From: Myxococcales bacterium
Lineage (GTDB): Bacteria; Myxococcota_A; UBA9042
Assembly (NCBI GenBank): GCA_037441385.1
Contig: JBBISH010000099.1
Coordinates: 1-24,352 of the forward strand
Length of the DNA: 24,352 bases
Direction of reading: 5' to 3'
This document shows positions 2,248 to 21,313 of the stretch, piece by piece; position 1 is the stretch's first letter; each line of letters begins with the position of its first letter. The translations under genes were made by a program, and so were the position numbers. Below the pieces are notes generated by a model, which saw nothing but the letters and a program-made list of their open reading frames with translations, did no database searches and had not been told where the DNA came from.

Positions 2248-2365
2248 GGGCAACCTTGCTGGGAGGTGGGCCGCCAGCATGCCGTTTCTTTTCCGCACGT
2301 AAAGGGCGTTCGGCGTTGACGCGAGCGGGCGAAACGGCAAGGCTGCGCGCCGCAGAGGCTTTTCC

Positions 2366-2944
2366 ATGACCAAATCCAAGCAGAATGGCCGCGTACGCGT
2401 CTTCGTCGCCAGCAGTCTGGACGGCTTCATCGCCGGGCCAAACGATGACCTCTCGTGGCTGCCCGAGCCCGCGGACAGCGACCACGGCTACGCGGCGTTC
2501 ATGGCGCAGGTGGGCGCGTTGCTGATGGGCCGGCGCACCTTGGAAGTGGTGGTAGGCTTTGGCGTTCCTTGGCCCTACGGCGAGCGCAGCGTGCTGGTTG
2601 CGACCCACCGGCCCTTGCCGGCCCTGCCGCCGACGGTGCAAGCCGCGGGCGGGCCCATCGACGAACTGCTCGACACGGCGCTGCAATTGGCCGGCGGCAA
2701 AGACGTGTACCTGGACGGGGGCGAGTTGATTCGCGCCGCGCTGGACGCAGGGCGCATCGACGAGTTCATCATTACGCTGATTCCATCTGTACTTGGCGCC
2801 GGCATCCCGCTTTTTGCCGGCGCTCACCAACGCCACGCTCTGCAACTGCAAAAAGCAGAGCCGCTGCCGGGCGGGCTGCTACAGCTGACCCTGACGCCGC
2901 AGCCGGCGCCAGTGCGGCAAACCATTCGCAAGGGCCAACCCTGA
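2366..2944 (+). CDS. Dihydrofolate reductase-like (RibD C-terminal domain) protein, 192 aa
   Basis: VASSLDGFIA, LLMGRRT, VYLDGG, IDEFIITLIPSVLGAGIPLF motifs. Confidence 0.92.
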   Translation: MTKSKQNGRVRVFVASSLDGFIAGPNDDLSWLPEPADSDHGYAAFMAQVGALLMGRRTLEVVVGFGVPWPYGERSVLVATHRPLPALPPTVQAAGGPIDELLDTALQLAGGKDVYLDGGELIRAALDAGRIDEFIITLIPSVLGAGIPLFAGAHQRHALQLQKAEPLPGGLLQLTLTPQPAPVRQTIRKGQP

Positions 2945-3017
2945 AGGCACTGCGGGTTTGTGGTACAAGTTTCCTGCTCGACCTGGGCCCATCGCCCACA
3001 CTTACCCAAGGAAAATC

Positions 3018-3614
3018 ATGGCTTCCCTCCTGACCGACGACGACTGGAACCTGCTCTTGACCGATGCCCACACCCATCACGGCTGGACGGACCGGCCCGT
3101 GGAGCGCGCAACCCTAGAAAAACTCTACCAGTTGCTGCGGATGGCGCCCACGGCGATGAATTGTCAGCCGTTGCGCGTGGTCTTTGTCCAGAGCGCCGAG
3201 GCCAAGGCGCGCTTGCGGCCCAGTCTCGAGGCCGGCAACGTCGACAAGACCATGGCCGCGCCCGTGACGGCCATCGTGGCGTGCGACACCCAGTTCTACG
3301 CGCACATGGACCGCTTGGCCCCGCACATCGCTGGGATCGGCGCCCGGATGGCCGCGATGCCCGAAGCTGGCCGCGACAGCCTGATCCGCAACAACGCCAC
3401 CCTGCAGACCGGCTACCTGATCCTGACGGCGCGCGGCCTGGGCTTGGACTGTGGACCAATGGGCGGGTTTGACCGCGCCAAGGTCGACGCGGAATTCTTT
3501 GCCGATGGCCGCTACAAGTCGCTGCTGTTGGTGAACTTGGGCTACGGCGACCCGAGCAAGCTGCGCCCGCGCGCGCCGCGCTTGGACTTCGACGAGGCCT
3601 GCCGCGTCGAATAG
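3018..3614 (+). CDS. rutE: RutE/YcdI-like nitroreductase (putative malonic semialdehyde reductase), 198 aa
   Basis: MAPTAMNCQPLRVVFV, GNVDKTMAAPVTAIVA, LGLDCGPMGGFD, LVNLGYGD, PRAPRLDFDEAC; AAGGA RBS before ATG 3018. No other rut genes are nearby, so the substrate is uncertain. Confidence 0.8.
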   Translation: MASLLTDDDWNLLLTDAHTHHGWTDRPVERATLEKLYQLLRMAPTAMNCQPLRVVFVQSAEAKARLRPSLEAGNVDKTMAAPVTAIVACDTQFYAHMDRLAPHIAGIGARMAAMPEAGRDSLIRNNATLQTGYLILTARGLGLDCGPMGGFDRAKVDAEFFADGRYKSLLLVNLGYGDPSKLRPRAPRLDFDEACRVE

Positions 3615-3707
3615 CCCGGCAGTCGCCTTGGCCTTGCCGCGCTGCCGCGCTGACCTATCTTGGCCAACCCGCCGGGCGTCGGCGGTGCCCTGTGCCGGAG
3701 CCCACCG

Positions 3708-4952
3708 ATGACTCAGCCCGCCGACCTGCTGCGCCAGCCGCTCAAGCTGCGCTGCGGGGCTACCCTGCCCAATCGCCTGGTCAAGTCCGCGATGAGCGAA
3801 GCCCTGGGCACCAAGGATCAGCGAGCTACGTCCGAGCTCGTGAGGCTGTATGGCCGCTGGGCCGACGGCGGCATTGGCCTGTCCATCACCGGCAACGTCA
3901 TGGTCGACCGCCGCGCCCTGGGCGAGCCAGGCAACGTAGCCCTAGAAGATGACAGGGATCTCGAGGTCCTGCGCCAGTGGGCGGCGGCGGCCAAGCGCCA
4001 GGGCGGCGCCGTGTGGATGCAGCTCAACCACCCGGGCAAGCAAGCGCCCAAGGGCCTGAATCGCGAAACAGTGGCGCCCTCCGCCGTGCCGTTTGGGCCG
4101 GCCCTCGCTCCGTACTTCGCCACGCCGCGCGAGCTAACTGAGCAAGAAATCCTTGATATTGTGAATCGTTTTGGCCGAGCCGCCGGGCTGGCCGAACAGG
4201 CCGGGTTCGACGGCGTGCAAATCCATGGCGCTCACGGATACCTGGTGGGGCAGTTCCTGTCGCCGCGCCACAACACCCGCGAAGACGCCTGGGGCGGCGA
4301 CGCCGAGCGCCGGCGCAAGTTCGTCTTGGCGGTGTACCAGGCTATACGGGCCGCCACCAAGCCGGGATTTGCGGTGGGCATCAAGCTAAATTCCGCCGAC
4401 TTCCAGCGCGGCGGCTTCACCGAAGACGAGTCGCTGTCCGTCATGCAGGCCCTCGACGAGGCCGGGATCGACCTGCTGGAAATTTCGGGCGGCACCTACG
4501 AGGCCCCCAAGATGTCGACCGGCGTGGAGCAAAAAGGCAGCAGCAAGGCCCGCGAGGCGTACTTCCTGGAGTTCGCCGAAAAGGCCAGGAAGGTCGTACA
4601 AGCGCCGCTGCTGGTGACCGGTGGCTTCCGCACGCTGCCGGGGATGGCCGACGCGCTGGCTTCGGGGGCGCTGGACTGCGTCGGCGTGGCGCGGCCGCTC
4701 GCCTTGGAACCCGATGCTCCCAAACGGTGGCTGCAAGGCCTTGAGTCGCAAGTCAGCACTCCGCCGCGGATCAAGACGGGGATTGCCGCGATCGACGCGG
4801 TGGCCCTGATGGAAATCGCCTTCTATGCCCGCCAGCTGCGCAAGATGGGCAAGGGCCAAGAGCCCACGCCCAACGAGTCGCCCCTCAAGGCGGCCATGAG
4901 CGCCGTGATCGGCAGCGGCTGGAAGGGCTTGACCCACAAGCTGCGCGCCTAA
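3708..4952 (+). CDS. NADH:flavin oxidoreductase / Old Yellow Enzyme family, 414 aa
   Basis: PNRLVKSAMSE, WMQLNHPG, AGFDGVQIHGAHGYL, FLSP..N.R.D.WGG, EISGGTYE, LVTGGFR; GGAG RBS. Confidence 0.93.
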   Translation: MTQPADLLRQPLKLRCGATLPNRLVKSAMSEALGTKDQRATSELVRLYGRWADGGIGLSITGNVMVDRRALGEPGNVALEDDRDLEVLRQWAAAAKRQGGAVWMQLNHPGKQAPKGLNRETVAPSAVPFGPALAPYFATPRELTEQEILDIVNRFGRAAGLAEQAGFDGVQIHGAHGYLVGQFLSPRHNTREDAWGGDAERRRKFVLAVYQAIRAATKPGFAVGIKLNSADFQRGGFTEDESLSVMQALDEAGIDLLEISGGTYEAPKMSTGVEQKGSSKAREAYFLEFAEKARKVVQAPLLVTGGFRTLPGMADALASGALDCVGVARPLALEPDAPKRWLQGLESQVSTPPRIKTGIAAIDAVALMEIAFYARQLRKMGKGQEPTPNESPLKAAMSAVIGSGWKGLTHKLRA

Positions 4953-6788: not shown

Positions 6789-8627
6789 CTACTGCCACTT
6801 CATGCCGGCAAGCTTGGCCCCCACTGCGGAAAATCGAATGCCCACGCTCGCTGCTTCGTTGTCGCCGTCGCCGTCCAAGTCCTGATCAAGCTTGAGCACT
6901 TTCTTGACCAGCTCGATGACTTGGTCCTTGGTCAGGCCGATCGCACCAAAAGCCCCGTCGCCGCTGGCCGCGATGACGTCTTGCAGGTTCGACATCGGGA
7001 TCGCGCCGCCCAACACGCCTTGCATGGCCTGAATCGACACGCCGTCGCTGGCAAACGTCACCGTACCCTCGATGCGCGCTCCCTTGACATAGATCAGGGC
7101 TTCGTTGGCGCCGTTGAGTTCGCCCTGCATCGCGAACAGCGTGTCCTTGGTGCCGGCGGTCAGCTTGCCACCTTGAATCTTGGCGTCTTTGAACGAGAAT
7201 TTGGGCTGACACGTCGCCGTCATCGCGCCCTGCTCTACGTACCATTCGCACACGTCGGCTTGGGGCTGGCAGCCGGCCGCAGCGCTGGCAGGAGTCAGTT
7301 GGGCGGCATACAAATTCAGGACAAAGGGAATGTTTTCGCCTTTGTACCCTTGCAGTTCGGCCACGAAGGTCAGGGTGCCGTCTTGGATGCCGGCGATGAG
7401 GCCCTTGTTGATGAACGCGCCCAGTACGGCAGCCGAATTGTCGATGCCGCCCGAGCAGTTGCCGGCTGGTGCGCACGTCTTGATGTCGCCGTCCACGTCG
7501 AAGCCCTCGCCCGGATTGCCGCTGGCGCCGATCTGGAACTGGATCATCTTGCCGGCCGATTTTTCAAAGGTATTTGTACACTTGGGGCACCAACCCGTCT
7601 TGAGGCCAATGCACTCGCCGCCCACGCAGGTGTCGCTGTCGGTGCAAGACTCGCCGTCGTCGCAGGGGGTCTGCGCCAGTACGTGGACGCAGCCCTTGAA
7701 GGGCTTGCAACTGTCTTGAGTGCAAGGGTTCTTGTCGTCGCAGGCCAGCGGCCCGCCGCCTTGGCACAACAGGTCCAGCGTGCACACCTGGCCCGTCAGG
7801 CAGGGATCGCCGGTGGTGCAGGAATCGCCAGGTTTCTTGTCAGGATGCGTGCACTTGCCCTTGTCGCACAGGTCTTGGGTGCAAGGCTTGCTGTCGTCGC
7901 AGACCTTGGGGTCGGGCACCGCGGTGCAACCGGTGGCCTTGTCGCAGCCATCCAAGGTGCACGGGTCCTTGTCGTCGCACACGGTGGCGGTGGCGCCGTG
8001 GCACAGGTTGGCCGCGCAGAAGTCGCCCGTGCTGCACGGGTTGCCGTCGTCGCAGGGCCCCGTGCCGGCGCTGTACTGGCAGCCCAGTTTCGCGTCGCAG
8101 ACGTCGACTGTGCACGGATTGCCGTCGTCGCACGACACCTTCTTGCCTGTGCAGTTGCCTTCGCTGCAGGCGTCGCCGGTGGTGCAGACGGTGTTGTCGT
8201 CGCAGGCGGTGACCGCTACGGACCAGTCGACCGCCGTCAGCGTGGGGCTGCACGCCAGGCAGACGTTGCCGGGCGCCGTGGCCCCGGCCGCGACGCACGC
8301 GCCCGCCACCGCGCACTGGCCATTTGCGACCTTGCTGACCACGCAACCCTTGCCCTTGTCACAGGTTTGCTCCGTGCAGGCCAGGCCGTCGTCGCACACA
8401 AGGGCGGTGCCCACGCACACTCCGCCCGCGCAGTGGTCGCCCTGCGTGCACGCATCGCCGTCGTCGCAGGTCGTGGCCGCGCCGCTGCATGGCCCGCCAT
8501 CACTGCCGACATCGACCGCCGCGTCGGCTTTGGCGCTCGCGGTCGTCGACTCGCTGGAGCACGCGAGCGCCGCCAGGCAGGCCCCCACGGCGCCCCACAC
8601 CAACCAACCCTTTCTACTGCCTTGCAT
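6789..8627 (-). CDS. Cys-rich repeat lipoprotein (CDDGNPCT repeats), 612 aa
   Basis: GGAGG RBS, lipobox-like ALAC, about 10 CDDxxxCTxxxC repeats, C-terminal globular domain with DVDGD and DLDGDGD Ca-binding-like motifs. Confidence 0.85.
   Translation of the reverse strand: MQGSRKGWLVWGAVGACLAALACSSESTTASAKADAAVDVGSDGGPCSGAATTCDDGDACTQGDHCAGGVCVGTALVCDDGLACTEQTCDKGKGCVVSKVANGQCAVAGACVAAGATAPGNVCLACSPTLTAVDWSVAVTACDDNTVCTTGDACSEGNCTGKKVSCDDGNPCTVDVCDAKLGCQYSAGTGPCDDGNPCSTGDFCAANLCHGATATVCDDKDPCTLDGCDKATGCTAVPDPKVCDDSKPCTQDLCDKGKCTHPDKKPGDSCTTGDPCLTGQVCTLDLLCQGGGPLACDDKNPCTQDSCKPFKGCVHVLAQTPCDDGESCTDSDTCVGGECIGLKTGWCPKCTNTFEKSAGKMIQFQIGASGNPGEGFDVDGDIKTCAPAGNCSGGIDNSAAVLGAFINKGLIAGIQDGTLTFVAELQGYKGENIPFVLNLYAAQLTPASAAAGCQPQADVCEWYVEQGAMTATCQPKFSFKDAKIQGGKLTAGTKDTLFAMQGELNGANEALIYVKGARIEGTVTFASDGVSIQAMQGVLGGAIPMSNLQDVIAASGDGAFGAIGLTKDQVIELVKKVLKLDQDLDGDGDNEAASVGIRFSAVGAKLAGMKWQ
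7611..8468 (-). repeat. Intragenic Cys-rich tandem repeats, about 10 units
   Basis: Recurrent GTCGTCGCA on the + strand, encoding CDDGDACTQGDHC, CDDGLACT, CDDNTVCT, CDDGNPCT, CDDGNPCS, CDDKDPCT, CDDSKPCT, CTTGDPCL, CDDKNPCT, CDDGESCT. Confidence 0.85.
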
Positions 8628-8827
8628 TGCTGCCTCCCCGGTCGTGCCGCCAAGCCGTTGCCAACCGAGCATAGACCAGCCCATGGCCGCGGCCAAGCAC
8701 GGATGGGTGGCAAAGTGACGGCCAAATCCGTGTGGACAATTCGCCGCCTCTGCGGCATGGTGTGCGCCAGGCGGGCGGTTGCGACGCCTTGCCCTAGCCG
8801 CCCATTCCCGGCGAGGCATTGGCCCCT

Positions 8828-10459
8828 ATGTCGCGTAGTTTCAACCTGTTCCTTGTACTGGTGTTGGTCTTGGGCGCAACCGTCCTGCGCCCCGCCAGCG
8901 TGCGCGCCGACGAACCGGCCGAAGCGGCGTGGAAGGCGGCCCCCAGTGCCGATGCCGCCGAACAGGCCGCGCGCGCCGCCCTGGACAAGGGGCAATTGGC
9001 CCGCGGTCTCAACTGGATCGAGCGCATGGTCCGGTCGCCTGGCCTAAGGCCGGCGCAAACCGCGTGGGCCGCCAAGATGCGCGCCGACCTGAAATGGAAG
9101 GCCGTGGATGCCGGTTTTGGCCAATTGCAGGTGACGGTGGTCCCCAGCCAGGCCCACGTCACCGTGGACGGCAAGCAATTGCTGCCCGTGGGCGGCAATC
9201 ACATGGTTTGGCTGTCCGAGGGCGGCCACCAAGTCGTCGCCACCGCGCCGGAGCACGGCAATTTCGACCAGTTCGTCAACGTGGTTCGGGGCGAAAAGCG
9301 CGAAATCGACATCCACTTGCCGCTTACTCGCGCGCCGGTGCTGATCCTAGAGGTTCGGCCAGCTTGCGACGTCTATGTCGACCAGGTGCGCATGGGGTCA
9401 AGCAGCAAGAGCCGGTTTACGGTAACGCCTGGGCCGCACTTGGTCGAGCTGCGTCTGGACGGATTCGTCAACTATATCGCTACCCTACACTTTGTCATGG
9501 GCGAGGAGAAGCGCCTGGGTGTGCAGCTGGTCAAAAGGGGCGATGAAGGACCGAGCGGCCCCAAGGTCAGCGACGTGGACCGTCCGATTCTGGATAGCGA
9601 GCGCCAAGACCATGGCGAGACGGGGCCGGACCTGGCCGCCGGGCCCCAGGTCGAATCGCCGATCTCGGGCCGCAAAACCCAGCGTGTCTCTGTCGATCGG
9701 CAACCCAAGGCCACCACCGGCGGACCAGATCACCCGGTCGTCGGCGGACCGGGCGCGTCCGGATCCAGCGGCGCCGAGGCGCCGGGCGGGGGCTCTGGCC
9801 CAGGCGACTATTCGGGGTCGGTGGCGGCCGACGGCCCGTCCCAGCCCTGGTCGGCAAGCACCAAGGGCTGGATGTTGGCTGGTCCCGGCCTTCTCGCGCT
9901 AGCCGGCGGGGCATATTACGCGCTTTCTTCGGCACGTGCGGCAGAGAATGTCAACGAAACCTTAGCGTATGGTGATTCAGGTTACGACGCTGCCTACGAA
10001 AAACAACAGCAGAACACCTACGTGGGCTACGCGGCCATGGGCGCTGGCGCGGTCCTGACCGGCTGGGGCAGCTACTACCTGCTGGCCAAGGGCGGGCTGT
10101 CGCGCACCGGCCGCGGGGCACTTGCCGCTGGCGTGGGCGCTGCTGCGCTGGGCGCCGCCGCGTACGTGTTCCTTGGGGCCCAGACCACGCTGAACAGCAC
10201 CGCGGATTTGCCGGCCAATCACCCCGAGATCGACCGACGCATCGCCGTGGCGCAGTCCAACGCGACCGTGGCCTACGGACTGGGCGGCGCCGGGGCCCTG
10301 GTGGCCAGTCTGGGCGTCTACTGGCTGGTTACCGGCGGAAGCTCATCTAGCGTTCAAGCCGAGTTGCCAAGCCAAACGGCATCAAGCACATCGCATTTTA
10401 CGTTGATTCCCCAAGTATCCACAGGGTTTTCTGGCGCATCGCTTCGCCTCGCCTGGTAG
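8828..10459 (+). CDS. PEGA domain-containing exported protein, 543 aa
   Basis: Signal peptide (..ASVRA-D), two PEGA-like repeats (GQLQVTVVPSQAHVTVDG..GGHQV; VYVDQV..PGPHLVELRLDGF), Gly/Pro linker, hydrophobic helix pairs, terminal aromatic residue (SLRLAW). Confidence 0.8.
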   Translation: MSRSFNLFLVLVLVLGATVLRPASVRADEPAEAAWKAAPSADAAEQAARAALDKGQLARGLNWIERMVRSPGLRPAQTAWAAKMRADLKWKAVDAGFGQLQVTVVPSQAHVTVDGKQLLPVGGNHMVWLSEGGHQVVATAPEHGNFDQFVNVVRGEKREIDIHLPLTRAPVLILEVRPACDVYVDQVRMGSSSKSRFTVTPGPHLVELRLDGFVNYIATLHFVMGEEKRLGVQLVKRGDEGPSGPKVSDVDRPILDSERQDHGETGPDLAAGPQVESPISGRKTQRVSVDRQPKATTGGPDHPVVGGPGASGSSGAEAPGGGSGPGDYSGSVAADGPSQPWSASTKGWMLAGPGLLALAGGAYYALSSARAAENVNETLAYGDSGYDAAYEKQQQNTYVGYAAMGAGAVLTGWGSYYLLAKGGLSRTGRGALAAGVGAAALGAAAYVFLGAQTTLNSTADLPANHPEIDRRIAVAQSNATVAYGLGGAGALVASLGVYWLVTGGSSSSVQAELPSQTASSTSHFTLIPQVSTGFSGASLRLAW

Positions 10460-10561
10460 GGCCGCCCGCAGTCCCACAAGCCATCGCGGGTCTCGCGAGT
10501 GCGACTCGGCAGCGCCGCTGAGCGGCGGCGACTTCGCAACACCCTGCAGAACAAGGACAAT

Positions 10562-12472
10562 ATGGTCCAGCACCCCCACCGTCAGCCCAGTCGCCCTGCG
10601 CTCGCCACCGACATGGCCAAGCCCGTCGAGGTGGTGACGATCGCAGCGCCGGCCCAGATCCTGCAGCGCGGGGCGACCTTTGCCGATGCCGATCACAAGC
10701 CCAGCCGCTACACCTTGCCCGCCAGCCTGGATTCGGCGTCGCCGGTGGCGTATCGGACGCGGGTGCCGCTGCCACGCGCCGAGGCCGAGCAAGCGCTGGC
10801 GCTGCTGTCGTTGGCGCGGCCCAGCGCGTTTGCGGCGCCGCAACCTTTGCGCGAGCAAGAGCTTTTTGAGGAAGTGTCGCTGGGCGTCTTATCGGCCCGG
10901 CAGTCGACCAATTTCCGCGGATATCGACAGGTGACCTTTGGTCCCAAGGACTCGGAGCGGTTGGCGCACCTGCTCCGGTCGCTGCAGCACCGCGAAGCCA
11001 GCGTGTTGGATCAAGCCTGCCACACTCACGTGGTGCTGGCGCGGCCCTACCGCACGCCGTTCACGCTGCTGCTGACGTTTGTGGGGCACAAGCCGCTGTG
11101 GTCGCTGGCCTCGGTCGCCAACCGCGCCTGGCACAAGCGGGTTCACCACGGCGACGACATCCCCACCATCGGCTACCTGCCGCAGCTGCACGTGGGCATT
11201 CTGGCCGATGCGATGGAGCGCGCGGCCGTGGTGGCGTCGGCCGGGACGCGCCTGGCACAGGTATTCATGCAGCCCTTCTGCGGCGTGGGGAGGCAGACCA
11301 ACAAGCCGGTCGCGCACGCCCTGGAGGAGCTGTGCGGTTTGACCTTGGCCGACCGAGCCGAGGGCTGGAAAGTGGCGCTGGTAGCGCAGGTAGGTCAGGC
11401 GCTGCCCGCCGAGCAGCCGCGCATCGACCCGAAAGTTCTGCGTAAGATTGGCGCTAATTTGCTGGCTTTCAGAAGCGAGCGTGTTCTTCCAGGTTATAAT
11501 TTTGAAGACAAGGCTCCGGAAGTCTACAAGCATCGCCAGGACATGGACGTGCCCGACGCGCTCGCCGTGCAGTGCGGCCGGGCCGGATACAACGCCTTTG
11601 CCCACTGGACGGGCTGCAACCGCGAACACGCCAAGGAGCTTTTGCTGCTGGACCGCGTCGATTCGCTGACGCCCGATGGCGAACGGCGCCTGGCCGAGAT
11701 GAGCGACCAGCAGAACCGAGTGACCGACAAAGTCATCGAGAACATGCCGCTTTGGGCGGACTTGCCCATGGGCAAAGCCCTGTCGCGCAACGCCGAGCGC
11801 GGCCGCAAGGCCTTTGCTCTGGTGGGTCAGCGCATCTACATCTGTGGCCTGTCGCGGCGCGACGTGCAGCGGGCCGGCCTGGACTGGGACCACGCGGTGC
11901 GCGCGGCCGGCGCGGCGGCGTCGCGGTCGGCGCTGATGGCCGAGCTGATGGGCGCTACGGAGCTGCCCGAAGGGGCGGATCTGCTGGCTGGCATCTGTTT
12001 GATGGCCGGGCCGGTGAACCAGAACGACATCGGCAAACAATTCTACGGCGAAAAAGACCTGCTCGACGAAAACTATGGGGACCGCGACCCAACCTCGCTG
12101 CTCGTGTGGACGCTCAAGGCCAAGACCGTCGCGGACCCGATCGGCAACGAAGAGCAACTGCTGAATCCGGCTCGTAAAGGCGCGCTCGTCGACCTGCGCC
12201 CGGGTCCGCACGAGGTCTGCCAGGTGGCCCAGGCCGGCGCGCTGAAGCCGCTGCGGCAGCAAGGCGGGCGCGTCAACGCCGAACGCGCCTTTGGCGAGCT
12301 GGGCAACTTTGTGACGGCCCCCGATGGCCGCGACATTGCCGGAAATCGCGGCTCTGCGTGGCCTGCGGCGTGGAGCCAGGCGCCCCTGTGGCCCGGAGAT
12401 TTGCCGGCTGCGCGCGCAGCCAGCGGCCCACATGCCGCCGCCCCACACCCCAAAGTCCAAGGTGGACGATGA
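10562..12472 (+). CDS. Hypothetical cytoplasmic protein, 636 aa; possible tandem divergent nitroreductase-like fold
   Basis: Long ORF with globular, enzyme-like composition, AAGGA RBS before ATG 10562 and ATGA overlap with the next gene. The coding call is strong; the fold assignment is inference. Confidence 0.8.
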   Translation: MVQHPHRQPSRPALATDMAKPVEVVTIAAPAQILQRGATFADADHKPSRYTLPASLDSASPVAYRTRVPLPRAEAEQALALLSLARPSAFAAPQPLREQELFEEVSLGVLSARQSTNFRGYRQVTFGPKDSERLAHLLRSLQHREASVLDQACHTHVVLARPYRTPFTLLLTFVGHKPLWSLASVANRAWHKRVHHGDDIPTIGYLPQLHVGILADAMERAAVVASAGTRLAQVFMQPFCGVGRQTNKPVAHALEELCGLTLADRAEGWKVALVAQVGQALPAEQPRIDPKVLRKIGANLLAFRSERVLPGYNFEDKAPEVYKHRQDMDVPDALAVQCGRAGYNAFAHWTGCNREHAKELLLLDRVDSLTPDGERRLAEMSDQQNRVTDKVIENMPLWADLPMGKALSRNAERGRKAFALVGQRIYICGLSRRDVQRAGLDWDHAVRAAGAAASRSALMAELMGATELPEGADLLAGICLMAGPVNQNDIGKQFYGEKDLLDENYGDRDPTSLLVWTLKAKTVADPIGNEEQLLNPARKGALVDLRPGPHEVCQVAQAGALKPLRQQGGRVNAERAFGELGNFVTAPDGRDIAGNRGSAWPAAWSQAPLWPGDLPAARAASGPHAAAPHPKVQGGR

Positions 12473-13434
12473 TGACCACAAACCCGAGCCACGCGGCGCC
12501 GTTGCGAAGAATCTACGAGCGTCCACCCAGCATGGTGCCCGCCTGGACGCGCGCGGTGACGGCAGGCGGCAAGCGCCCCGCCGCACCGCCGACCGGCGAG
12601 ACGCTCGCCCTGCCCAACCTGGAGCTGGAGCTGTGGCCGCAGCGGGCCGACCCAGGGCATCTGGCGCGCTACAAGCAACTGTGTGGTTTTACAGGCGATC
12701 AACGATTGCCGCTGCCCTATCCACAGCTGATGGCCGGGTCACTGCACTTCCACATGCTGACCGACCCACAGTTCCCCTTGCCTCCCGCAGGGTTGGTGCA
12801 CCTGGGCAACCACATCGAGCAGACGCGGCCGCTGCGGCCCGACGATCCGATCCATTTCGCCTGCCGCTTTGGCACCACGGCGCTCACGGCGCGCGGGCTG
12901 GAATTCGAGCTTTTGACCCAGGCCACGGTGTACGGGGAACCGGTGTGGCGGTCCGTGCTGACCATCTTGTCGCGGGCCGTGCGCGACGAGGCCGCAGCCA
13001 AAGCCAAAGCGACCCAAACCGCCTCGGGCAGTCGCCGGGCGCCGCCCGCCCTGCCAGGGACTCCACTTCGGTCCTTGCTGCTGCGCGTGCCCGAAGATAC
13101 AGGCCGGCGCTATGCCGCCGTGGCGGGCGACTACAATCCCATCCACTTGCATCTGATCACCGCAAAACTATTTGGGTTTCCGCGCGCGATTGCGCACGGC
13201 ATGTGGACGTTCTCGCGCACGCTGGCCGAGGCGAGCGACGACCTGCCCCCGGGGCCGCTGCAGTGCGACGTGCGCTTCAGCAAGCCGGTGCTTTTGCCCA
13301 GCACCGTGCAACTGCGCGCCAATCGAATCGATTCTGGCGTCGCCTTTGCCATGAGCAACCGCGACGGGAGCACCCAGCACCTGAGTGGCCAGGTGGTGAC
13401 GCGGACGGCGCCAACCAGGCCGTTTGCCGCTTGA
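12469..13434 (+). CDS. MaoC-like double hot-dog (R)-enoyl-CoA hydratase/dehydratase, 321 aa
   Basis: Hydratase-2 motif YAAVAGDYNPIH..AKLFGFPRAIAHGMW, GLVHLGNHIEQ and VRFSKPVLLP. Confidence 0.9.
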   Translation: MMTTNPSHAAPLRRIYERPPSMVPAWTRAVTAGGKRPAAPPTGETLALPNLELELWPQRADPGHLARYKQLCGFTGDQRLPLPYPQLMAGSLHFHMLTDPQFPLPPAGLVHLGNHIEQTRPLRPDDPIHFACRFGTTALTARGLEFELLTQATVYGEPVWRSVLTILSRAVRDEAAAKAKATQTASGSRRAPPALPGTPLRSLLLRVPEDTGRRYAAVAGDYNPIHLHLITAKLFGFPRAIAHGMWTFSRTLAEASDDLPPGPLQCDVRFSKPVLLPSTVQLRANRIDSGVAFAMSNRDGSTQHLSGQVVTRTAPTRPFAA

Positions 13435-13497
13435 ACCGGTGCGGCGGGGCGTAGATACTGCACAGATGGGCGCGGCTGCCAGCGCCAAGGATCCCGG

Positions 13498-15708
13498 ATG
13501 CGCTCGGCACTCGCTTTGTCTTTTGGCCTTGCTCGGTTCTGCGGCCTAGCCTTGTGGCTATCCCTGGCGGTCGCCGCACCCACCGTGCTCACTGCGTGCA
13601 GTAGCCCAGGCACCAGCACCAACTCGTCGGGCGCCAACGGCTCGCAGAACAGCGATGTTGGCACGATGTTCGGCGACGGCTACACCGTTTTGCCCGACGG
13701 CAAAGTCGTCGAAACGCAGTCGACCTCGGACGCCGTCACCGACAGCGGCAAGGACAGCACGTTCGTGGATGATACCACGTTCAATTGCACACCTGAGGGC
13801 CAAGTCGCGTGTTTCAACGAGACGGTTGTCAAGGCATGTGTCGAAGGCCAATGGCAATTCGCAGAGAAATGCAGTGAAGGGGATGTCTGTCAAAACGGCA
13901 AGTGCGTCACCCCCACCAGCTGCAAAGCCGGCGACGTTGACGGCTGCGACGGTACCCAAAGCGTCAAGATCTGTGCCGAGGGCGGCAACGCCTGGACCAC
14001 CAAGAAGTGCGTCGGCAAGCAACTGTGCATCGACGGCGCCTGCAAAGAAGTCGTGTGTACACCTGGCTTTGGCACCTGCCTCGACAAGGAAAACATCCAG
14101 CTGTGCAAAGCCGACGGCTCTGCCTTTGAGGCGCCCACGACGTGCAAGCCCGGCTCGTTCTGCTTTGGCGGCAAGTGCGTGTCGCTGTGCGAAACCAACT
14201 TGAAAATCAGCAACAACGTGGGCTGCGAGTACTGGACCGTGGACCTGGACACCAGCCACGACACCTTCTCGGCCATCACGACCCCGGGCAACGTTACGCC
14301 CGACTTCTTGCCCCACAGCGTGGTCATCGCCAACCCGGGACAATTCGACGCGGAATTGACGTTCCAGGTCGCCTCGAGCTGCGGCGTCTCCGGTCCGTGC
14401 AAGCCAATCTCGACGTGCGGGGGCAAGAACACCGAATGCAAGGTACCCTCTGGCCCGTACAACCTGGACATCCCCGACAACGTGGTCAAAGCTGGCGGAA
14501 CCAAAGAGTTCAAGATGCCGGTGATGAACGCCGACACCTCGGGGATTTTCCGCAAAGCGATCCGCATCAACTCGACCCAGCCGGTGGTCGCGTTCCAGTT
14601 CAACCCGTTCGACGCCCAGGGCGCCGCAAGCAACGACGGTTCACTGCTTTTGCCCGTGAACACGCTGGGCAAGCACTACATCGCGATCGTGCTGGGCTCG
14701 CGGCCCGAGATCAACTTTGGACCGACGATGCCCTCGCAAAACGGCTACTTCACGGTGGTCGCGACCTCGGCAGGCGAGACCACGGTGACGGTCACTCCCA
14801 CCAGCAAGATCTCGGCCAAACCTCAGTACGGCGTACCACAAGATGGAACGACGCCCACCGCGCTCGAAAGCGGCAAGACGTATACCTTCAAGCTCAAGCA
14901 GTTCGACATCCTGAACCTGGAGCATCTGGGCGAGATGACCCTGGGCAAGTTGACGGACCTCACCGGCACCAAGATCGACTCAGACAAGAATGTCTCGGTT
15001 TTCTGCGGACATGAGGAAGCTGTCATCGGCAACGACGGCCAATCGTCCAACACGGGTACCGACCCCAACGCCAAAGACAGCTGCTGCGCCGAACACATCG
15101 AGGAACAGATGATGCCCATCGAAGCGTGGGGCGCCGAGGTCTACGCCACCAAGACCAAACCGCGTGGAACTGAAAAGGATCTGTACTACATCGTGGCCGG
15201 TGTCGACAACGTGAGCCTGACCACGGTCCCGCCCATCGCCGAGGTCAATGGCAAGGTGCTCGCCAAGGCGGGCGACTACCTGAAGGTCCAGACCGACCAG
15301 AGCTTCATGATCAAGGCCACGGGCAAGATCGAGGTCGCTCAATTCATCGTCAGCCGCGGCCAGACCGAAGACTTCCAGGGCGACCCCAGCATGATGATCG
15401 TGCCGCCCAAGACCCAGTATCGCGAGGAGTATCTGATCCAAACCGCCAACGGCTACGGCGCTGACTGGGTGACGATCGTGCGGCCCAAGGGCATCAAGAT
15501 CCTGGCCGATGGCGCGCAAGTGCCCGACAATACCTTTGTTTCCCTAGGCGACGGCACCTGGGAAATGGCCTACTACAAGGTGACGGTGGGCGCGCACTTC
15601 TTCAAGTCGGACCCTGGCGGCGCTTTTGGCCTGATGGTCTATGGTTACGGCACGTCGGCGCCTACGGCCTACTCGTATCCGGGCGGCATGAACCTGATCG
15701 TGCAGTAG
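13498..15708 (+). CDS. IgGFc-binding-protein N-terminal domain lipoprotein with Cys-rich stalk, 736 aa
   Basis: Lipobox LTAC, Cys-rich repeats, then SNNVGCEYWTVDLD, QFNP, SNDGSLLLPVNTLG, GTKIDSDKNVSVFCGH, HIEEQMMP..WG, GDPSM, VYGY..YSYPGG. Confidence 0.88.
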   Translation: MRSALALSFGLARFCGLALWLSLAVAAPTVLTACSSPGTSTNSSGANGSQNSDVGTMFGDGYTVLPDGKVVETQSTSDAVTDSGKDSTFVDDTTFNCTPEGQVACFNETVVKACVEGQWQFAEKCSEGDVCQNGKCVTPTSCKAGDVDGCDGTQSVKICAEGGNAWTTKKCVGKQLCIDGACKEVVCTPGFGTCLDKENIQLCKADGSAFEAPTTCKPGSFCFGGKCVSLCETNLKISNNVGCEYWTVDLDTSHDTFSAITTPGNVTPDFLPHSVVIANPGQFDAELTFQVASSCGVSGPCKPISTCGGKNTECKVPSGPYNLDIPDNVVKAGGTKEFKMPVMNADTSGIFRKAIRINSTQPVVAFQFNPFDAQGAASNDGSLLLPVNTLGKHYIAIVLGSRPEINFGPTMPSQNGYFTVVATSAGETTVTVTPTSKISAKPQYGVPQDGTTPTALESGKTYTFKLKQFDILNLEHLGEMTLGKLTDLTGTKIDSDKNVSVFCGHEEAVIGNDGQSSNTGTDPNAKDSCCAEHIEEQMMPIEAWGAEVYATKTKPRGTEKDLYYIVAGVDNVSLTTVPPIAEVNGKVLAKAGDYLKVQTDQSFMIKATGKIEVAQFIVSRGQTEDFQGDPSMMIVPPKTQYREEYLIQTANGYGADWVTIVRPKGIKILADGAQVPDNTFVSLGDGTWEMAYYKVTVGAHFFKSDPGGAFGLMVYGYGTSAPTAYSYPGGMNLIVQ

Positions 15709-16480: not shown

Positions 16481-19400
16481 TTACTTGATGCGCAGGACGC
16501 GCAGCCGCGCCTTGGCCGCAGCCGGCACCGTCACCGCCACCGGCACCTCGGCCTGGTCAGCAGACGCAGTCAGGGTCAGGTACTCCACGCCCCCCGACTT
16601 CAGGGTACCGTCGGCCTTGCCCACCGCCTTCATCGCGGGACCTGCCATCGCTTGGCCGTGGAAGGGGGCGTACACGTCGCCGCCGCGCGGTTTACCCGTC
16701 ACCGGATCCGTTGCGGCGGGCAAGAACGAGAAACACGGGTTACTGGGCGCAGTTCCGCCCTTCTCGGCGCGGTTGCTGGCGGCGAGTGCGGTGTAGAAGT
16801 CGACGGCCATGTCGCCAGGATCGGCCTTGCTCAGACTCGCGATGGTCGCGGCCACGGGCTCTTTGCCGTTCAAGAGGGCTTTGAGAAAGCCCGGGCCGCC
16901 CTTGTCCGCGATGCTGCCGTCTTTGGCCGCCAGGTCGCCCCCGCCGCGGTCGTAGAGCCAGCGGACGAACCAGTAGCTGACGCCGCGCAACACGCCGTCT
17001 TTGCTCGTGTCGTAGGCCGTGTGGTCCATGAGGGTGGCCGAGAGCGAGAAGTCGTTGATGCCGTCGAGCCCGGCCTTGGCCACGTACAGGTTGCCCGACT
17101 GGAAGCCGACCGCGTCTTGGGCAAAGGCGCCAAAACCCTCGATCATGTAAGAGCTATCGTCCCAAGTGGCCAACTTGTTGCGGAGCACCTTGCGGTTGAA
17201 GTGCATCAGGTGCCCACACTCGTGGGCGAGGATCTCTTTGATGGCTGCGGGCGTGTTGTAGGGCGGTTTGATGTTGGCCGGCGGGGTCAAGTACAGAAAT
17301 TCCCCCTGGTTGCCCTGGTAGCAGCCATCGAGCGGGGCCAGGTCGCAGGCGGTGAAAAAGGCGACCGCGGTCTTAGCCGTCAGCGGCGTGAACACCAGCC
17401 CGACGCGGCCGTCGCCGTCTTGGTCGGACTCTTGGCCAAACAGCTGCCGCTCGCGGGGGAGGATGAGGTCGTTGAAGTCTTTGAGAAAATCATCAATCAC
17501 TGCCACATCGAGCGTAGCCGGGTGAGCTGGGCTGACGTCGAGCCACACCACCGCGCGTTCGGCCACCGCCACCACCTTGGCGTCGATCACCTCGGTGCCG
17601 GTGCCCGTGGACATCACCAACTTGCGCACGGTGTCCAACGCCGGGGGCTGCCCAGTGGGCGGTGTTTCCGCCTGACCCGCCTGACCTTGCCAGCCCTGGA
17701 TCGCGCACCCCTTGACCAACTGCGCCTGCAGTGCGCTCGGGTCGCCCAAAGCTTCGCTGTCGCCCACTGCGACCGTGTACGCGTGCTTCTTGGAAGCCGA
17801 GGTCAGCTGCGTCGACGCCAGTATCAAGGCGAACTGCTCGGTGCCGCTCGGAGTGGCCAGGCGCACCCCGGCAAAGCCATCCGTGACCGTCACTTCGCCG
17901 ACTTCGCCCGGTTGGAGCGCCAACATACCCGGTTCCGCTGCGGCCGTGTCGGCGTCTTGCGCGGCCGTGCCACCGTCGCCCCCGGCGTCGGATCCTGTGG
18001 AATCTTGGATGGTTGCCGAACCATCCGCCCCGGCTTGGGTCGTTGGCCCGGCAGAACTGTCGCAGCCGAGCGCCGCCAAGGCCACAAGCATCGCCAAAGC
18101 CGCCCGCCGCCACCGCTGCCCAGCGTACAGGGCCAACAGCAAACCAAGCAGCACGCCGGCCGAACCGCCCCCTGTTCGCCCCGCGCGACACCCCCCTTCG
18201 GTCCGGGCAGGCGCAGCGACCGAGGCCTTTGCATCTGCAGCCCTATCTCCCCCAGACGTGCCCGCATCGGCCGCGGTATCGCCGGGGGCGGTGTCACCCG
18301 CTGCCGTGTCGCCCGTGGGGGCTGGCACGCAGGGCTCCAGCTCGTCGGGACCGCCCAAGCACAGCGTGCCTTGGATGCTATTGCCGGCCGCCGCACCATT
18401 GACCAGCATGACAAACACCTCGTCCACGCCCTGGCAGTCCACCATAACCGGGCTCCCAGACTGGGCAAACACCGGGTCACTCAGCTTGTTGCCCTTGCGC
18501 GTCAGCAGCGCCACCTGCAGGTCTACGGTCGGCTTGGTCGGCACCACGGCCAGCGCCATCTGGGTACGACCCGCCGGCGCCACATTCAGATACTGAGCCG
18601 ACGCCGAGAAAACCCGCATCGAGTCATCCACATACGGCGCATCGACCTTGCTCGTCGCCACCAACGGCAGCTCATTGCCGTGTGGGTAGCTGCGCTGCGG
18701 GTCCCAGCGCTTGCTGGTGAGCAGATTCCAGAACGCGAAAGTGGCCATCTCTTTGGGGAAAGTGGTCTTGTCGTCGCGCGGGAGCAGCGCTACCAGGGCC
18801 GGCAGCCACTCGGGGTTGGCCACACCTTGGGCACCGTTGCGGCAGTCCTCCCACAGTCGGCGCACCACGTCGTTGCCCACGCGCAGGTCCAGGAACATGT
18901 AAAACAGGCTCATGCCGTAAGAAAACGCGTCGACGGGCCCCAAGTTGGGCTTGTTGAGCGACCGCTCGGGGTGGTCCAGGTAGCCGCTGGCAAAGGCCTC
19001 GAAGTCGCTCAAACTGCTATCGAATCGCTCAGTCGCCCACACGGCCGTGCCCTCGACGAACTCGGTGCTTTGACCGGCATCGTAGGCCGCCTGCACGGCA
19101 TGGAAGAACTCGTGGCTCGCCAGGATGCGATTGGCGTAGTCGACCGACGGATAGCCGTAGCCGGCAAAGTCATTCTCTTGAATCATGAAGCCGGCGCAGG
19201 TGTCTTGGATGCACGACTCCTGCACAAAGCTCCCGTCAGCCTTCCCTGCAAAATCCAGCAGATATACGTCGAACTTGCCGTCGCCGCCGTTCTTGGCCTG
19301 CTTGGCGTCGCTCAGGGGCTCAAGAAAGCCCAGCGATTTGTAGAAGGCCAACACCTCTTCGTACAGCGCCGCGAGCTTCTGCACGTGGTCCGGCACGTTG

Positions 19401-19618
19401 TCGGCGTCGGCATCGCCCAACGGCACAGCGTGGTCGCCGGCGATGGTGTAGTGGAGCTTGAAGTGGCCGCCAACCGAGTCAAAGGTCAGGACTTTGTCGG
19501 TCGCGGCGTACTTGTAGATGTCGGTCTTGGTCGGAGCGTCGGGCCGGGCCAAGGCCGGGGCCGCCAGCAACCCCAGCAAGGCCGCAACGGCATAGCGCAA
19601 CAGCTTAAACTTGCTCAT
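16481..19618 (-). CDS. Double zinc metalloprotease: MXAN_6640-like domain + internal MYXO-CTERM/lipoprotein signal + second HEXXH domain, 1045 aa
   Basis: Signal peptide MSKFKLLRY..PALA-RPD; HEFFH (19100-19114) + EGTAVW; GGC..LLGLLLAL..RWRR then AALAMLVALAALGC; HECGH (17210-17224) + EGFGAF. Confidence 0.85.
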   Translation of the reverse strand: MSKFKLLRYAVAALLGLLAAPALARPDAPTKTDIYKYAATDKVLTFDSVGGHFKLHYTIAGDHAVPLGDADADNVPDHVQKLAALYEEVLAFYKSLGFLEPLSDAKQAKNGGDGKFDVYLLDFAGKADGSFVQESCIQDTCAGFMIQENDFAGYGYPSVDYANRILASHEFFHAVQAAYDAGQSTEFVEGTAVWATERFDSSLSDFEAFASGYLDHPERSLNKPNLGPVDAFSYGMSLFYMFLDLRVGNDVVRRLWEDCRNGAQGVANPEWLPALVALLPRDDKTTFPKEMATFAFWNLLTSKRWDPQRSYPHGNELPLVATSKVDAPYVDDSMRVFSASAQYLNVAPAGRTQMALAVVPTKPTVDLQVALLTRKGNKLSDPVFAQSGSPVMVDCQGVDEVFVMLVNGAAAGNSIQGTLCLGGPDELEPCVPAPTGDTAAGDTAPGDTAADAGTSGGDRAADAKASVAAPARTEGGCRAGRTGGGSAGVLLGLLLALYAGQRWRRAALAMLVALAALGCDSSAGPTTQAGADGSATIQDSTGSDAGGDGGTAAQDADTAAAEPGMLALQPGEVGEVTVTDGFAGVRLATPSGTEQFALILASTQLTSASKKHAYTVAVGDSEALGDPSALQAQLVKGCAIQGWQGQAGQAETPPTGQPPALDTVRKLVMSTGTGTEVIDAKVVAVAERAVVWLDVSPAHPATLDVAVIDDFLKDFNDLILPRERQLFGQESDQDGDGRVGLVFTPLTAKTAVAFFTACDLAPLDGCYQGNQGEFLYLTPPANIKPPYNTPAAIKEILAHECGHLMHFNRKVLRNKLATWDDSSYMIEGFGAFAQDAVGFQSGNLYVAKAGLDGINDFSLSATLMDHTAYDTSKDGVLRGVSYWFVRWLYDRGGGDLAAKDGSIADKGGPGFLKALLNGKEPVAATIASLSKADPGDMAVDFYTALAASNRAEKGGTAPSNPCFSFLPAATDPVTGKPRGGDVYAPFHGQAMAGPAMKAVGKADGTLKSGGVEYLTLTASADQAEVPVAVTVPAAAKARLRVLRIK

Positions 19619-19641
19619 GCTTTTGTTCCCGCTCGTCTGGG

Positions 19642-20484
19642 CTAGTCGAGGTAGGCCCAGCGCAAGCCCAGGTTGCCGCCTTCGCTGCCGGCCGGAATCG
19701 AGCCGCCACTGTCGCATTTGGCTTGCACTTCAGGCTGATAGTAGGTGACGACGCTGACCTTGACGTGGCGACCGTTGGCGAGCTGCAGGATGTACACAGT
19801 TCCGGTCATCTTGACGCAGTTGGTGTACTTCCAAAACGTGGCGAGCTGAGTGGCGGGCGTGCCCAGGCCCGACTTGTCGGCGACCACCTTGCAGCTGCTG
19901 TCGTAGTACGCCTCTGGCTTGAAGACAGCGGCATCTGGGACGGCGCTGACGTCGTCGAACTTGTTGGCCGAGCTGAGCTTGTAGGCGCTGACGCACGACG
20001 GGCCAGAGACGCCGCTGTTCAAGCGCACGATGAAGCGGCGGGCGGCCAGGTCCCAATCCTGTGACATAAAGGCCTTTTCGTCGCCGATGTTGACCTTGAC
20101 CAAGCCCTTGTCGGTGAACTTGGCGTAGACGTAGGCCTCGCTGGGCGAGGAACCGCCACCGCTGCTGTCCAGGGTGCTGACAAAGCCGTTGCCGTCGGCC
20201 ACGTTGTCGATGCTGCGGTCGCTGGCTTGTTTGAACAACGCCAAGTCCAGGATCTGATTGTCGGTGCACTGCGGTTCGACGGGGTCGCAGATGGGAGCGG
20301 CGGTCGTGTCTGCCGTGGCGGTGTCTTGGCTCGCGGTGTCGCTGCCAGCCGTGTCGGCGGCGCTGGCCGTGTCGCTGGTGTCGCCGCTTGGGCAATTGAC
20401 GCCGGGCGTGCACGCCGAGCCGCCCGCGTTGGCCGTGCATCCGGCCGCAGCGAGCACCATCACGAAAGGAACGAATCGACCCAT
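19642..20484 (-). CDS. hmuY: HmuY-family lipoprotein, 280 aa
   Basis: Lipobox AAGC, Asp/Thr/Ala linker, YVYAKF, DWDLAARRFIVRLNSGVSG, VYILQLANGRHVKV..YY and terminal LRWA motifs typical of HmuY. Confidence 0.78.
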   Translation of the reverse strand: MGRFVPFVMVLAAAGCTANAGGSACTPGVNCPSGDTSDTASAADTAGSDTASQDTATADTTAAPICDPVEPQCTDNQILDLALFKQASDRSIDNVADGNGFVSTLDSSGGGSSPSEAYVYAKFTDKGLVKVNIGDEKAFMSQDWDLAARRFIVRLNSGVSGPSCVSAYKLSSANKFDDVSAVPDAAVFKPEAYYDSSCKVVADKSGLGTPATQLATFWKYTNCVKMTGTVYILQLANGRHVKVSVVTYYQPEVQAKCDSGGSIPAGSEGGNLGLRWAYLD

Positions 20485-20531
20485 TGTTTTCCCTGCCCAG
20501 CGGCCACCACGGACCGGGCCAAAAGCGCGGC

Positions 20532-20592
20532 AGGATAGCACAGTCGGCTGTGCGGTGGCCACGGAAATCCCACATGCGACAGACTTTGTCGC
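20532..20592 (-). promoter_or_regulatory. Putative promoter/operator of the hmuY-protease pair
   Basis: Extended -10 TGCTATCCT (minus strand, 20532-20540), with inverted repeats at 20538-20553 and 20576-20592. Confidence 0.4.
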
Positions 20593-20602
20593 TTTGGGGC
20601 AG

Positions 20603-21304: not shown

Positions 21305-21313
21305 CGACTTGCC

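Follow-up and report, generated by a model that had tools for sequence, protein, structure and literature searches.

A conserved gene overlaps the start of an HtdX-type dehydratase gene

We analyzed a 24,352-nucleotide stretch of DNA from a Myxococcales bacterium (GenBank assembly GCA_037441385.1, contig JBBISH010000099.1, positions 1 to 24,352), here called the window. The subject of this study is a gene at positions 10562 to 12472 on the plus strand, together with the gene that follows it. A preliminary description, made from the sequence alone, had read the product as an unassigned 636-amino-acid (aa) protein with two degenerate nitroreductase-like repeats. Translation confirmed an uninterrupted frame of 636 codons, and the four segments on which that description relied were found where it had placed them (RPSAF at 10817, LHVG.. 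at 11186, LLAFRSERV at ~11459, and AVRAAG.. at ~11894). The frame is open from GTG 10499, and the gene call in the collection begins at the second ATG, 10613, giving 619 aa. Because the residues upstream of ATG 10613 are kept in an 89%-identical homologue and AAGGA stands 5 nt before ATG 10562, the latter is a plausible start. Comparison with the same homologue gave 0.074 nonsynonymous (dN) and 1.19 synonymous (dS) substitutions per site, a dN/dS ratio of ~0.06. With this low ratio, 841 homologues and one copy per carrying genome, the gene is real. A long antisense open reading frame (ORF) at 10889-12586 (-) was rejected as a shadow in high-GC DNA; its apparent homologues are 34 to 48% identical, compared with 59 to 70% for the plus frame at the same loci. 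A promoter and terminator scan of positions 10300 to 13600 returned no site of either kind.

The stop codon of the gene (TGA, 12470-12472) overlaps the start codon of the next gene (ATG, 12469) by 4 nt (ATGA). Pfam analysis of the downstream protein revealed a MaoC domain (PF01575, 4.6e-16). A profile of 23 orthologues matched HtdX in the PDB (3wew_A/4oob_A) with an E value of 1e-60 over positions 37 to 289 (253 profile positions), and the sequence GDYNPIH, which fits the G-D-x-N-P-x-H pattern in the second hotdog, is invariant in these orthologues. On the evidence of its MaoC domain, its hydratase-2 motif and its full-length similarity to HtdX, the partner is an HtdX-type (3R)-hydroxyacyl-thioester dehydratase. 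The features of the pair and of the neighboring genes are listed in Table 1.

Table 1. Features of the 636-aa protein gene, its partner gene and nearby genes in the window
Feature	Position	Strand	Evidence
Coding sequence, 636 aa + stop (alternative ATG 10613, 619 aa)	10562..12472	+	Translation; dN/dS
Conserved N-terminal arm, residues 20-70, mostly extended; 54-57 in predicted partner interface	10619..10771	+	Block confidence (pLDDT) 84-94 over 21-70; conserved columns; co-fold interface
Predicted nitroreductase-fold domain 1, residues ~71-287	10772..11422	+	
RPSAF, residues 86-90, candidate degenerate counterpart of the R-x-S-x-R/K-x-F loop	10817..10831	+	R86, P87, F90 >=90% conserved; 88 variable
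RQSTN, residues 113-117, loop between helix B and strand 1	10898..10912	+	>=90% conserved; QSTN on NfsB S39-S40-T41-N42 (hhalign)
Predicted nitroreductase-fold domain 2, residues ~288-560	11423..12241	+	
RSERVLPG, residues 304-311, after helix 290-300; putative FMN-phosphate loop of domain 2	11471..11494	+	Role inferred
CLMAGPVNQND, residues 479-489, strand and turn after long helix 442-464; putative counterpart of the nitroreductase G-L-G..x.m.G-f turn	11996..12028	+	G483 strictly invariant
Conserved C-terminal tail, residues 561-612; 568-573 and 591-604 (DIAGNRGSAWPAAW) are the predicted partner docking surface	12242..12397	+	Block pLDDT 94-97 over 561-610, 72 for 611-620; co-fold; tail motif
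Non-conserved C-terminal extension, residues 613-636, low confidence; last codons overlap the start of the next gene	12398..12469	+	
Partner gene, HtdX-type double-hotdog (3R)-hydroxyacyl-thioester dehydratase/enoyl hydratase 2 by sequence, 321 aa	12469..13434	+	PF01575; HtdX profile match; ATGA overlap
GDYNPIH hydratase-2 motif of the partner, residues 220-226	13126..13146	+	D221, N223, P224, I225, H226 invariant in 23 orthologues
Methyltransferase	733-1341		
3-Demethylubiquinone-9 3-methyltransferase/glyoxalase-like protein	1348-2430	-	
RibD_C protein	2366-2944		
Canonical nitroreductase	2958-3614		PF00881 7e-16
Old-Yellow-Enzyme-type FMN oxidoreductase	3660-4952		

The 636-aa protein is predicted to be a fused pair of nitroreductase-fold domains

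An AlphaFold2 model of the 636-aa protein, built on an alignment of 46 sequences, had a mean predicted local distance difference test score (pLDDT) of 88.4 and a predicted template modeling score (pTM) of 0.90, with pLDDT below 50 only at residues 1-6, 309-311 and 621-636. A Foldseek search of the PDB with this model gave 21 matches at E<=0.001, which were of the nitroreductase type throughout among the matches listed, and a VIA structure search of 48,161 representatives found only structures of the nitroreductase superfamily. The closest structure was a member of the Acg subgroup. Single-domain matches from these searches include NfsA, NfsB, NfnB and FRase I, and the C-terminal domain of FbiB and CLA-ER also are among the fold matches.

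The predicted structure has an alpha+beta fold in which a central antiparallel sheet is flanked by helices, arranged in two interlocked units, as in the nitroreductase superfamily. The segments picked out in the first half correspond to helix A and its loop (72-83), helix B (98-107) and its loop, strand 1 (121-126), a long helix (201-225) and a strand (230-235). The second half repeats this order of elements (290-300, 332-350 and 362-367; 442-464 and 476-481), and the two halves together mimic a homodimer, as in the monomers of the Acg-containing flavin-dependent oxidase (FDO) subgroup. From the model, we are highly confident of the fold and architecture: a single-chain protein, probably cytoplasmic, with two full-size nitroreductase-fold domains packed like the subunits of a homodimer. 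An N-terminal arm and a C-terminal tail are added to the fused pseudo-dimer in the model. The proposal of a single-chain pseudo-dimer was thus borne out by the comparison of a predicted structure with known folds that the preliminary description had suggested as a check. Its comparison with Acg-type proteins held for the tandem architecture but not for size, as the present protein is about twice the length of an Acg-type protein.

The fold was not detectable by sequence methods. With the whole protein as query, neither Pfam nor NCBIfam gave a family at E<=1, and Pfam gave none at E<=10 for residues 1-70, 71-290, 291-570 or 501-613 searched separately. Matches in PADLOC and PHROGs (E>0.03) and in the PDB, searched with the single sequence or with a 46-row profile (E 0.17 to 2.3), were at the level of noise, and searches of the ESM Atlas with the whole protein and with residues 288-562 returned no usable match. 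A search of the organism's own genome with PF00881, the nitroreductase family model, found two canonical nitroreductases, one of them encoded in the window at 2958-3614; the 636-aa protein was not among them. The view that no family is obvious and that the protein is highly divergent, possibly a new family, was therefore upheld by every profile library and profile comparison used.

We also aligned the protein directly with a 29-sequence nitroreductase alignment, comprised of Escherichia coli NfsB, the window's own nitroreductase and 27 sequences from the phylum. The hhalign probability was 1.4% for the N-terminal half and 0.5% for the C-terminal half, and that for one half against the other was 0.2%. 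The best E value in a BLASTP comparison with the window's own nitroreductase was 0.061. Given these hhalign probabilities, the nitroreductase echo in the four segments does not rise above chance by sequence statistics; it was the predicted structure that vindicated it. The alignment of the N-terminal half nevertheless is colinear, with RPSAF lying near the RHSTKAF of NfsB and QSTN (114-117) falling exactly on SSTN (39-42). The internal repeat that had been proposed was not recovered from sequence. Since the halves lack sequence similarity, duplication can be argued from the predicted fold only, and they may instead have been joined by fusion of two different genes.

A prealbumin-like beta-sandwich at the C terminus (residues ~496-595) also was considered. 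This region matches two giant SdrD_B/CarboxypepD_reg repeat proteins (E value of 1.5e-7 for one, summed over 8 repeats, and of 2.4e-6 for the other, over 11), a similarity that we treated as spurious or motif level. The candidate was rejected: the model places residues 496-560 inside domain 2 and 560-612 in a mostly non-regular tail, and the Pfam search of residues 501-613 was empty.

The protein family is tight and patchily distributed

In total, 841 proteins match the 636-aa protein at E<=0.001, and the best 120 of these are 566 to 641 aa long and 60 to 100% identical to it. An exhaustive phmmer search of 1.84 billion cluster representatives gave 114 proteins at E<=0.001. Only three of these matches are approximately full length (611 aa, 60% identity; 627 aa, 47%; 605 aa, 55%), which indicates a tight family without sequence-detectable distant relatives. 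The others are the two giant repeat proteins and shorter pieces that are indistinguishable from fragments at contig ends; no search for split forms was made. No fused form was seen among proteins of 1114 to 3180 aa, which is weak evidence.

The preliminary description had called for a taxonomic survey. Among 201 sampled genomes of the phylum, the gene was found in 59 (58 of the 191 high-quality genomes and 44 of the 143 genera), always as one copy per genome. Its presence is patchy by family, with 16/19, 7/7 and 9/17 genomes carrying it in some families and 0/11, 0/13 and 0/11 in others. Identity across the classes of the phylum is 57 to 89%. Two of the 59 carrying genomes have a match that is broken up between frames or interrupted by internal stops (G116:C47:35788-37580 and G156:C100:12303-14112), which may reflect a frameshift, a pseudogene or an error of assembly.

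Across GTDB, with one genome per species, 247 stretches encode a relative. Among the homologues found by sequence, every source name is "hypothetical protein." Named isolates with a relative belong to Lujinxingia, Enhygromyxa, Plesiocystis, Archangium and Cystobacter, and Persicimonas and Microvenator are labels on metagenome-assembled genomes that carry one. Some other metagenome-assembled carriers were deposited under the labels Enterobacteriaceae, Rhodobacterales and Bdellovibrionales, which are unconfirmed.

Conserved residues suggest a single flavin site

Nitroreductases carry an R-x-S-x-R/K-x-F phosphate loop after the first helix. Only 13 columns are strictly invariant among the 46 aligned sequences, and six of these (R304, S305, E306, R307, P310 and G311) lie in the loop that immediately follows the opening helix of domain 2. 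The corresponding loop of domain 1 keeps only R86, P87 and F90. G483, which lies in the turn following the long helix, also is strictly invariant. The QSTN residues of domain 1 align with the S39-N42 loop of NfsB, which we take, from NfsB structures, to reach into the flavin site of the partner subunit; T41 of NfsB is an engineered active-site position according to the titles of PDB entries matched by Foldseek.

From the conserved motifs RSER, G483 and RQSTN, we infer that the protein binds flavin mononucleotide (FMN). In this reading, domain 2 would supply both the R304-S305-x-R307 loop that holds the FMN phosphate and the G483 turn that holds the flavin edge, and domain 1 would close off the opposite side of the site with its R113-Q-S-T-N117 loop. 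The mirror site appears degenerate. A single functional site fits the combination of an invariant domain 2 loop, a glycine turn and a domain 1 STN loop with a degenerate phosphate loop in domain 1, and so these motifs suggest that there is probably one FMN site.

The HtdX-like gene is the only recurring neighbor

The gene neighborhood was examined in a sample of 80 species loci and in a set of 15 loci with 8-kb flanks. An HtdX-like gene lies directly downstream in 40 of the 80 loci and 1.5 kb away in one more; it was found in 9 of the 15 loci of the second set. The start of the partner gene falls within -13 to +4 nt of the stop codon in 20 of 28 clustered cases, and 10 of these 20 have the 4-nt overlap. 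No other neighbor recurs in more than 4 of the 80 loci or in more than 4 of the 15.

Some loci differ in ways that we record here as observations. Four of the partnerless loci have a short-chain dehydrogenase/reductase (SDR) gene nearby, a number too small to support a conclusion, and in Nannocystaceae the downstream neighbor encodes a DEAD-box/MrfA-type helicase. Another locus that lacks the hotdog partner has a gene for a fatty-acid desaturase (PF00487, 3.2e-40) directly upstream (L022:6891-7967, G072:C15). The HtdX-like genes of sister genera that lack the 636-aa protein neighbor NTP transferase, CDP-alcohol phosphatidyltransferase and nitrogenase-like genes, or an amidase gene. In one such locus (L140, G009:C7, 2559-9665), the HtdX-like gene stands between a pair of NTP-transferase and CDP-alcohol phosphatidyltransferase genes and a group of NifH-like and two nitrogenase-component-1-like genes. 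No obvious substitute for the 636-aa protein was seen beside the HtdX-like genes of the sister genera.

Co-folding predicts that the conserved tail docks the partner

Residues 20-615 of the 636-aa protein were co-folded with the partner, with FMN included but unscored and with three controls. The interaction prediction score from aligned errors (ipSAE) was 0.78, 0.82 and 0.78, compared with 0.00 for the best control. The runs share at least 98% of contacts, and pLDDT of the partner was at least 83. The same ipSAE mark is reached by 116 of 157 solved complexes and by 2 of 215 mismatched pairs, a calibration that holds only roughly here, where our own alignments were used and a ligand was added. 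We know of no solved nitroreductase-hotdog complex, so the prediction seems unlikely to reproduce a memorized structure. The predicted interface is made by residues 54-57, 568-573 and 591-604 of the 636-aa protein and by residues 199-204, 254-257, 279-284 and 298-300 of the partner. The tail motif [GA]N.G..W is present in 74 of the 80 loci, including all 40 with an adjacent partner. The co-fold thus supports docking of the HtdX-type partner through the conserved C-terminal tail.

Proposed function and alternatives

HtdX is described as converting beta-hydroxyacyl coenzyme A (CoA) to enoyl-CoA and as normally the second gene after that of the ketoreductase FabG4, in a conserved pair (PMC6008564). 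In the present pair, the upstream place of FabG4 would be taken by a protein with a flavoprotein-like fold, which, standing upstream of a dehydratase, would supply the enoyl/acyl step instead of the keto/hydroxy step. The two proteins, translated from overlapping genes, would perform two adjacent steps on a fatty-acyl thioester: the 636-aa protein would interconvert the saturated acyl and trans-2-enoyl forms by C-alpha/C-beta redox, and the hotdog partner the enoyl and 3R-hydroxyacyl forms. The 636-aa protein could act as an enoyl reductase that completes an elongation-type cycle or as a desaturase/oxidase that feeds the hydratase, for a net beta-hydroxylation. The C-terminal domain of FbiB and CLA-ER, two of the fold matches, reduce C=C bonds. 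This acyl redox mechanism, the simplest way of reading these precedents together, is a tentative proposal, to which we give slightly better than one chance in three. The statement as a whole (a fused nitroreductase pseudo-dimer with one FMN site, docked by its tail and carrying out acyl-thioester redox beside a dehydratase) has in our estimate a probability of roughly 0.45. It builds on the predicted fold and tandem architecture, the apparent operon coupling, the family and catalytic motif of the partner, and the model support for binding, to which flavin binding, the single site, a thioester substrate and the direction of the reaction would be added.

Several observations weigh against this interpretation. 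No sequence or profile method ties the protein to a nitroreductase family, and the model was built on an alignment of little diversity (46 rows, 39 to 89% identical to the query). The site assignment rests on motif positions and known NfsB contacts rather than on residue-level superposition, and the FMN in the co-fold, being unscored, gives no measure of flavin binding. Within the stored flanks, no HtdX-like gene was found in 39 of the 80 loci, 35 of which have at least 1 kb of room; the tail motif also is present in 34 of these 39 loci. An HtdX-like orthologue of good quality was found elsewhere in only one of five genomes without adjacency. Conversely, five of five sister-genus genomes that lack the 636-aa protein keep an HtdX-like gene (40 to 50% identity), in other contexts in the two loci examined (L140 and L141), so neither protein strictly needs the other. 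Finally, the FDOs characterized in the account of PMC10404671 use N-acyl amino acids rather than thioesters, and Acg, as presented in PMC11841060, does not use NAD(P)H.

The same account of the FDO subgroup describes its members as monomers that mimic a homodimer with a single active site; TyzC and OxzB desaturate C-alpha/C-beta of N-acyl amino acids with O2, and the frequent position of such genes beside lipid genes led its authors to propose lipid desaturation as a general role (PMC10404671). The 636-aa protein, whose closest structure is an Acg-subgroup member, could likewise desaturate an N-acyl amino acid or another non-thioester lipid, the hotdog protein acting separately on the chain or serving only to stabilize. 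This is the chemistry of the only members of the subgroup characterized there, but no ThiF-like or N-acyltransferase gene recurs as a neighbor, the HtdX-like gene being the only one above the recurrence limits given above, and the protein does not belong to the subgroup by sequence; we consider such an oxidase distinctly unlikely. Acg also has a lid over its FMN and is proposed to sequester it (PMC11841060). A shell that stores FMN or has lost it, and that supports or regulates hotdog dehydratases in the manner of non-catalytic hotdog subunits, would agree with the degenerate phosphate loop of domain 1 and with a tail that is conserved with or without an adjacent partner. It is at odds with the many polar and charged residues that are at least 90% conserved where one flavin site is expected and with the very low dN/dS, and identity of 57 to 70% between classes would seem to exceed what a storage shell demands. 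We regard this role as unlikely.

Many of the single-domain fold matches, such as NfsA, NfsB, NfnB and FRase I, suggest a detoxifying role as an ordinary NAD(P)H-dependent reductase of nitro compounds, quinones or flavins. Against it stand the two canonical PF00881 proteins that the genome already has, the failure of the PF00881 model to find the 636-aa protein, the fused pseudo-dimer with its extra arm and tail, the operon coupling to a dehydratase, and an evolution that appears much slower than that of typical detoxifying nitroreductases, and we judge this role to be very improbable. A role in natural-product biosynthesis, as a SagB/McbC/BmdC-type azoline or peptide dehydrogenase or one resembling the cyclodipeptide oxidases, would be expected least of all: no cyclodehydratase (YcaO type), nonribosomal peptide synthetase, cyclodipeptide synthase or precursor-like gene recurs in the 80 loci, no YcaO-type cyclodehydratase or nonribosomal peptide synthetase appeared in Pfam scans of sampled neighbors, and the gene is single copy with housekeeping-like conservation across the phylum.

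Surroundings of the gene pair in the window

Pfam analysis of the rest of the window revealed a cluster of small redox/detoxification-type genes on both strands between 733 and 4952 (Table 1). Likely surface or secreted proteins flank the pair, namely, a Cys-rich protein with Dicty_CTDC repeats (6789-8819, -), a PEGA-domain protein with hydrophobic C-terminal segments (8819-10459, +) and an IgGFc_binding-domain protein (13498-15708, +). None of these flanking genes is conserved as a neighbor across the loci compared. No Pfam family matched at E<=0.01 in two long ORFs, at 16481-19717 (-; 1078 aa) and 20258-22678 (+; 806 aa), and some of these may be shadow frames in high-GC DNA.

Comparison with known systems and significance

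The 636-aa protein is predicted to share the single-chain nitroreductase pseudo-dimer shape of Acg and the FDOs (2ymv, MSMEG_5246; TyzC and the nitroreductase domain of OxzB). Unlike these proteins of ~330 to 370 aa, it has 636 aa, with each half a full-size domain, and it adds an N-terminal arm and a predicted C-terminal docking tail. It has no PF00881 or NCBIfam match, whereas the FDO subgroup was defined by similarity networks within PF00881, with a typical length of ~340 aa (PMC10404671). It occurs in Myxococcota and not, as Acg and the FDOs mainly do, in Actinobacteria, and its partner is an HtdX-type hotdog protein rather than a ThiF protein or an acyltransferase. A two-domain putative nitroreductase of the Ava_2154 type (3eo7, 487 aa) is 13% identical over the aligned residues and has no sequence-level relation to it. 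The homodimeric FMN nitroreductases (NfsB, NfnB, BluB, IYD, the FbiB C-terminal domain and CLA-ER) have two identical chains and two sites, compared with one chain and probably one site here, and show no detectable sequence similarity (hhalign, 1.4% and 0.5%). The FabG4-HtdX pair resembles the present one, in which a close HtdX relative (E 1e-60) is again the second gene of a tightly coupled pair; the upstream gene of the FabG4-HtdX pair encodes an SDR ketoreductase instead of a nitroreductase-fold protein. We also noted, in another genome of the phylum (L139:1642-3318, G015:C70), a 558-aa protein broadly like the Ava_2154 type, with two PF00881 matches in one frame and the twin-arginine-like sequence RRSFFRLL in a leader at its N terminus. 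This tandem nitroreductase is of another kind, recognizable by sequence, and is unrelated to the 636-aa protein in sequence context.

A literature search found no paper on this protein or on a combination of nitroreductase and MaoC proteins in myxobacteria, and none relevant to nitroreductase-fold pseudo-dimers in one polypeptide among the papers listed. What is new here is the ATGA coupling to an HtdX-type gene, the adjacency in 40 of 80 loci and the docking of the tail supported by co-folding. The protein evolves slowly, is annotated only as hypothetical and is invisible to profile libraries, and structure prediction places it clearly; a motif reading made by eye, below any statistical threshold, can prove correct. 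The nitroreductase superfamily is thereby extended to a double-size single-chain form with predicted docking appendages.

Known enzymes for comparison include the enoyl reductases FabI, FabL and FabV (SDR type) and FabK and the acyl-CoA dehydrogenases. It is conceivable, although we think it rather doubtful, that the 636-aa protein is the founding member of an unrecognized class of flavin-dependent acyl/enoyl-thioester oxidoreductases that are built on a fused nitroreductase pseudo-dimer, form a stoichiometric complex with an HtdX-type dehydratase and are used by a large part of Myxococcota. If so, it would be distinct from all of these enzymes, as a structurally new way of carrying out the enoyl-reductase or acyl-desaturase step when fatty acids are elongated or modified. 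The predicted fold and the predicted docking onto a fatty-acyl dehydratase suggest a flavin enzyme of lipid metabolism that has yet to be described. If the coupling to the HtdX-type dehydratase is real, flavoenzymes of the nitroreductase fold would extend into core acyl-thioester chemistry, and the pair would offer a candidate, open to testing, for a step not yet described in the unusual lipid metabolism of myxobacteria and bradymonads.

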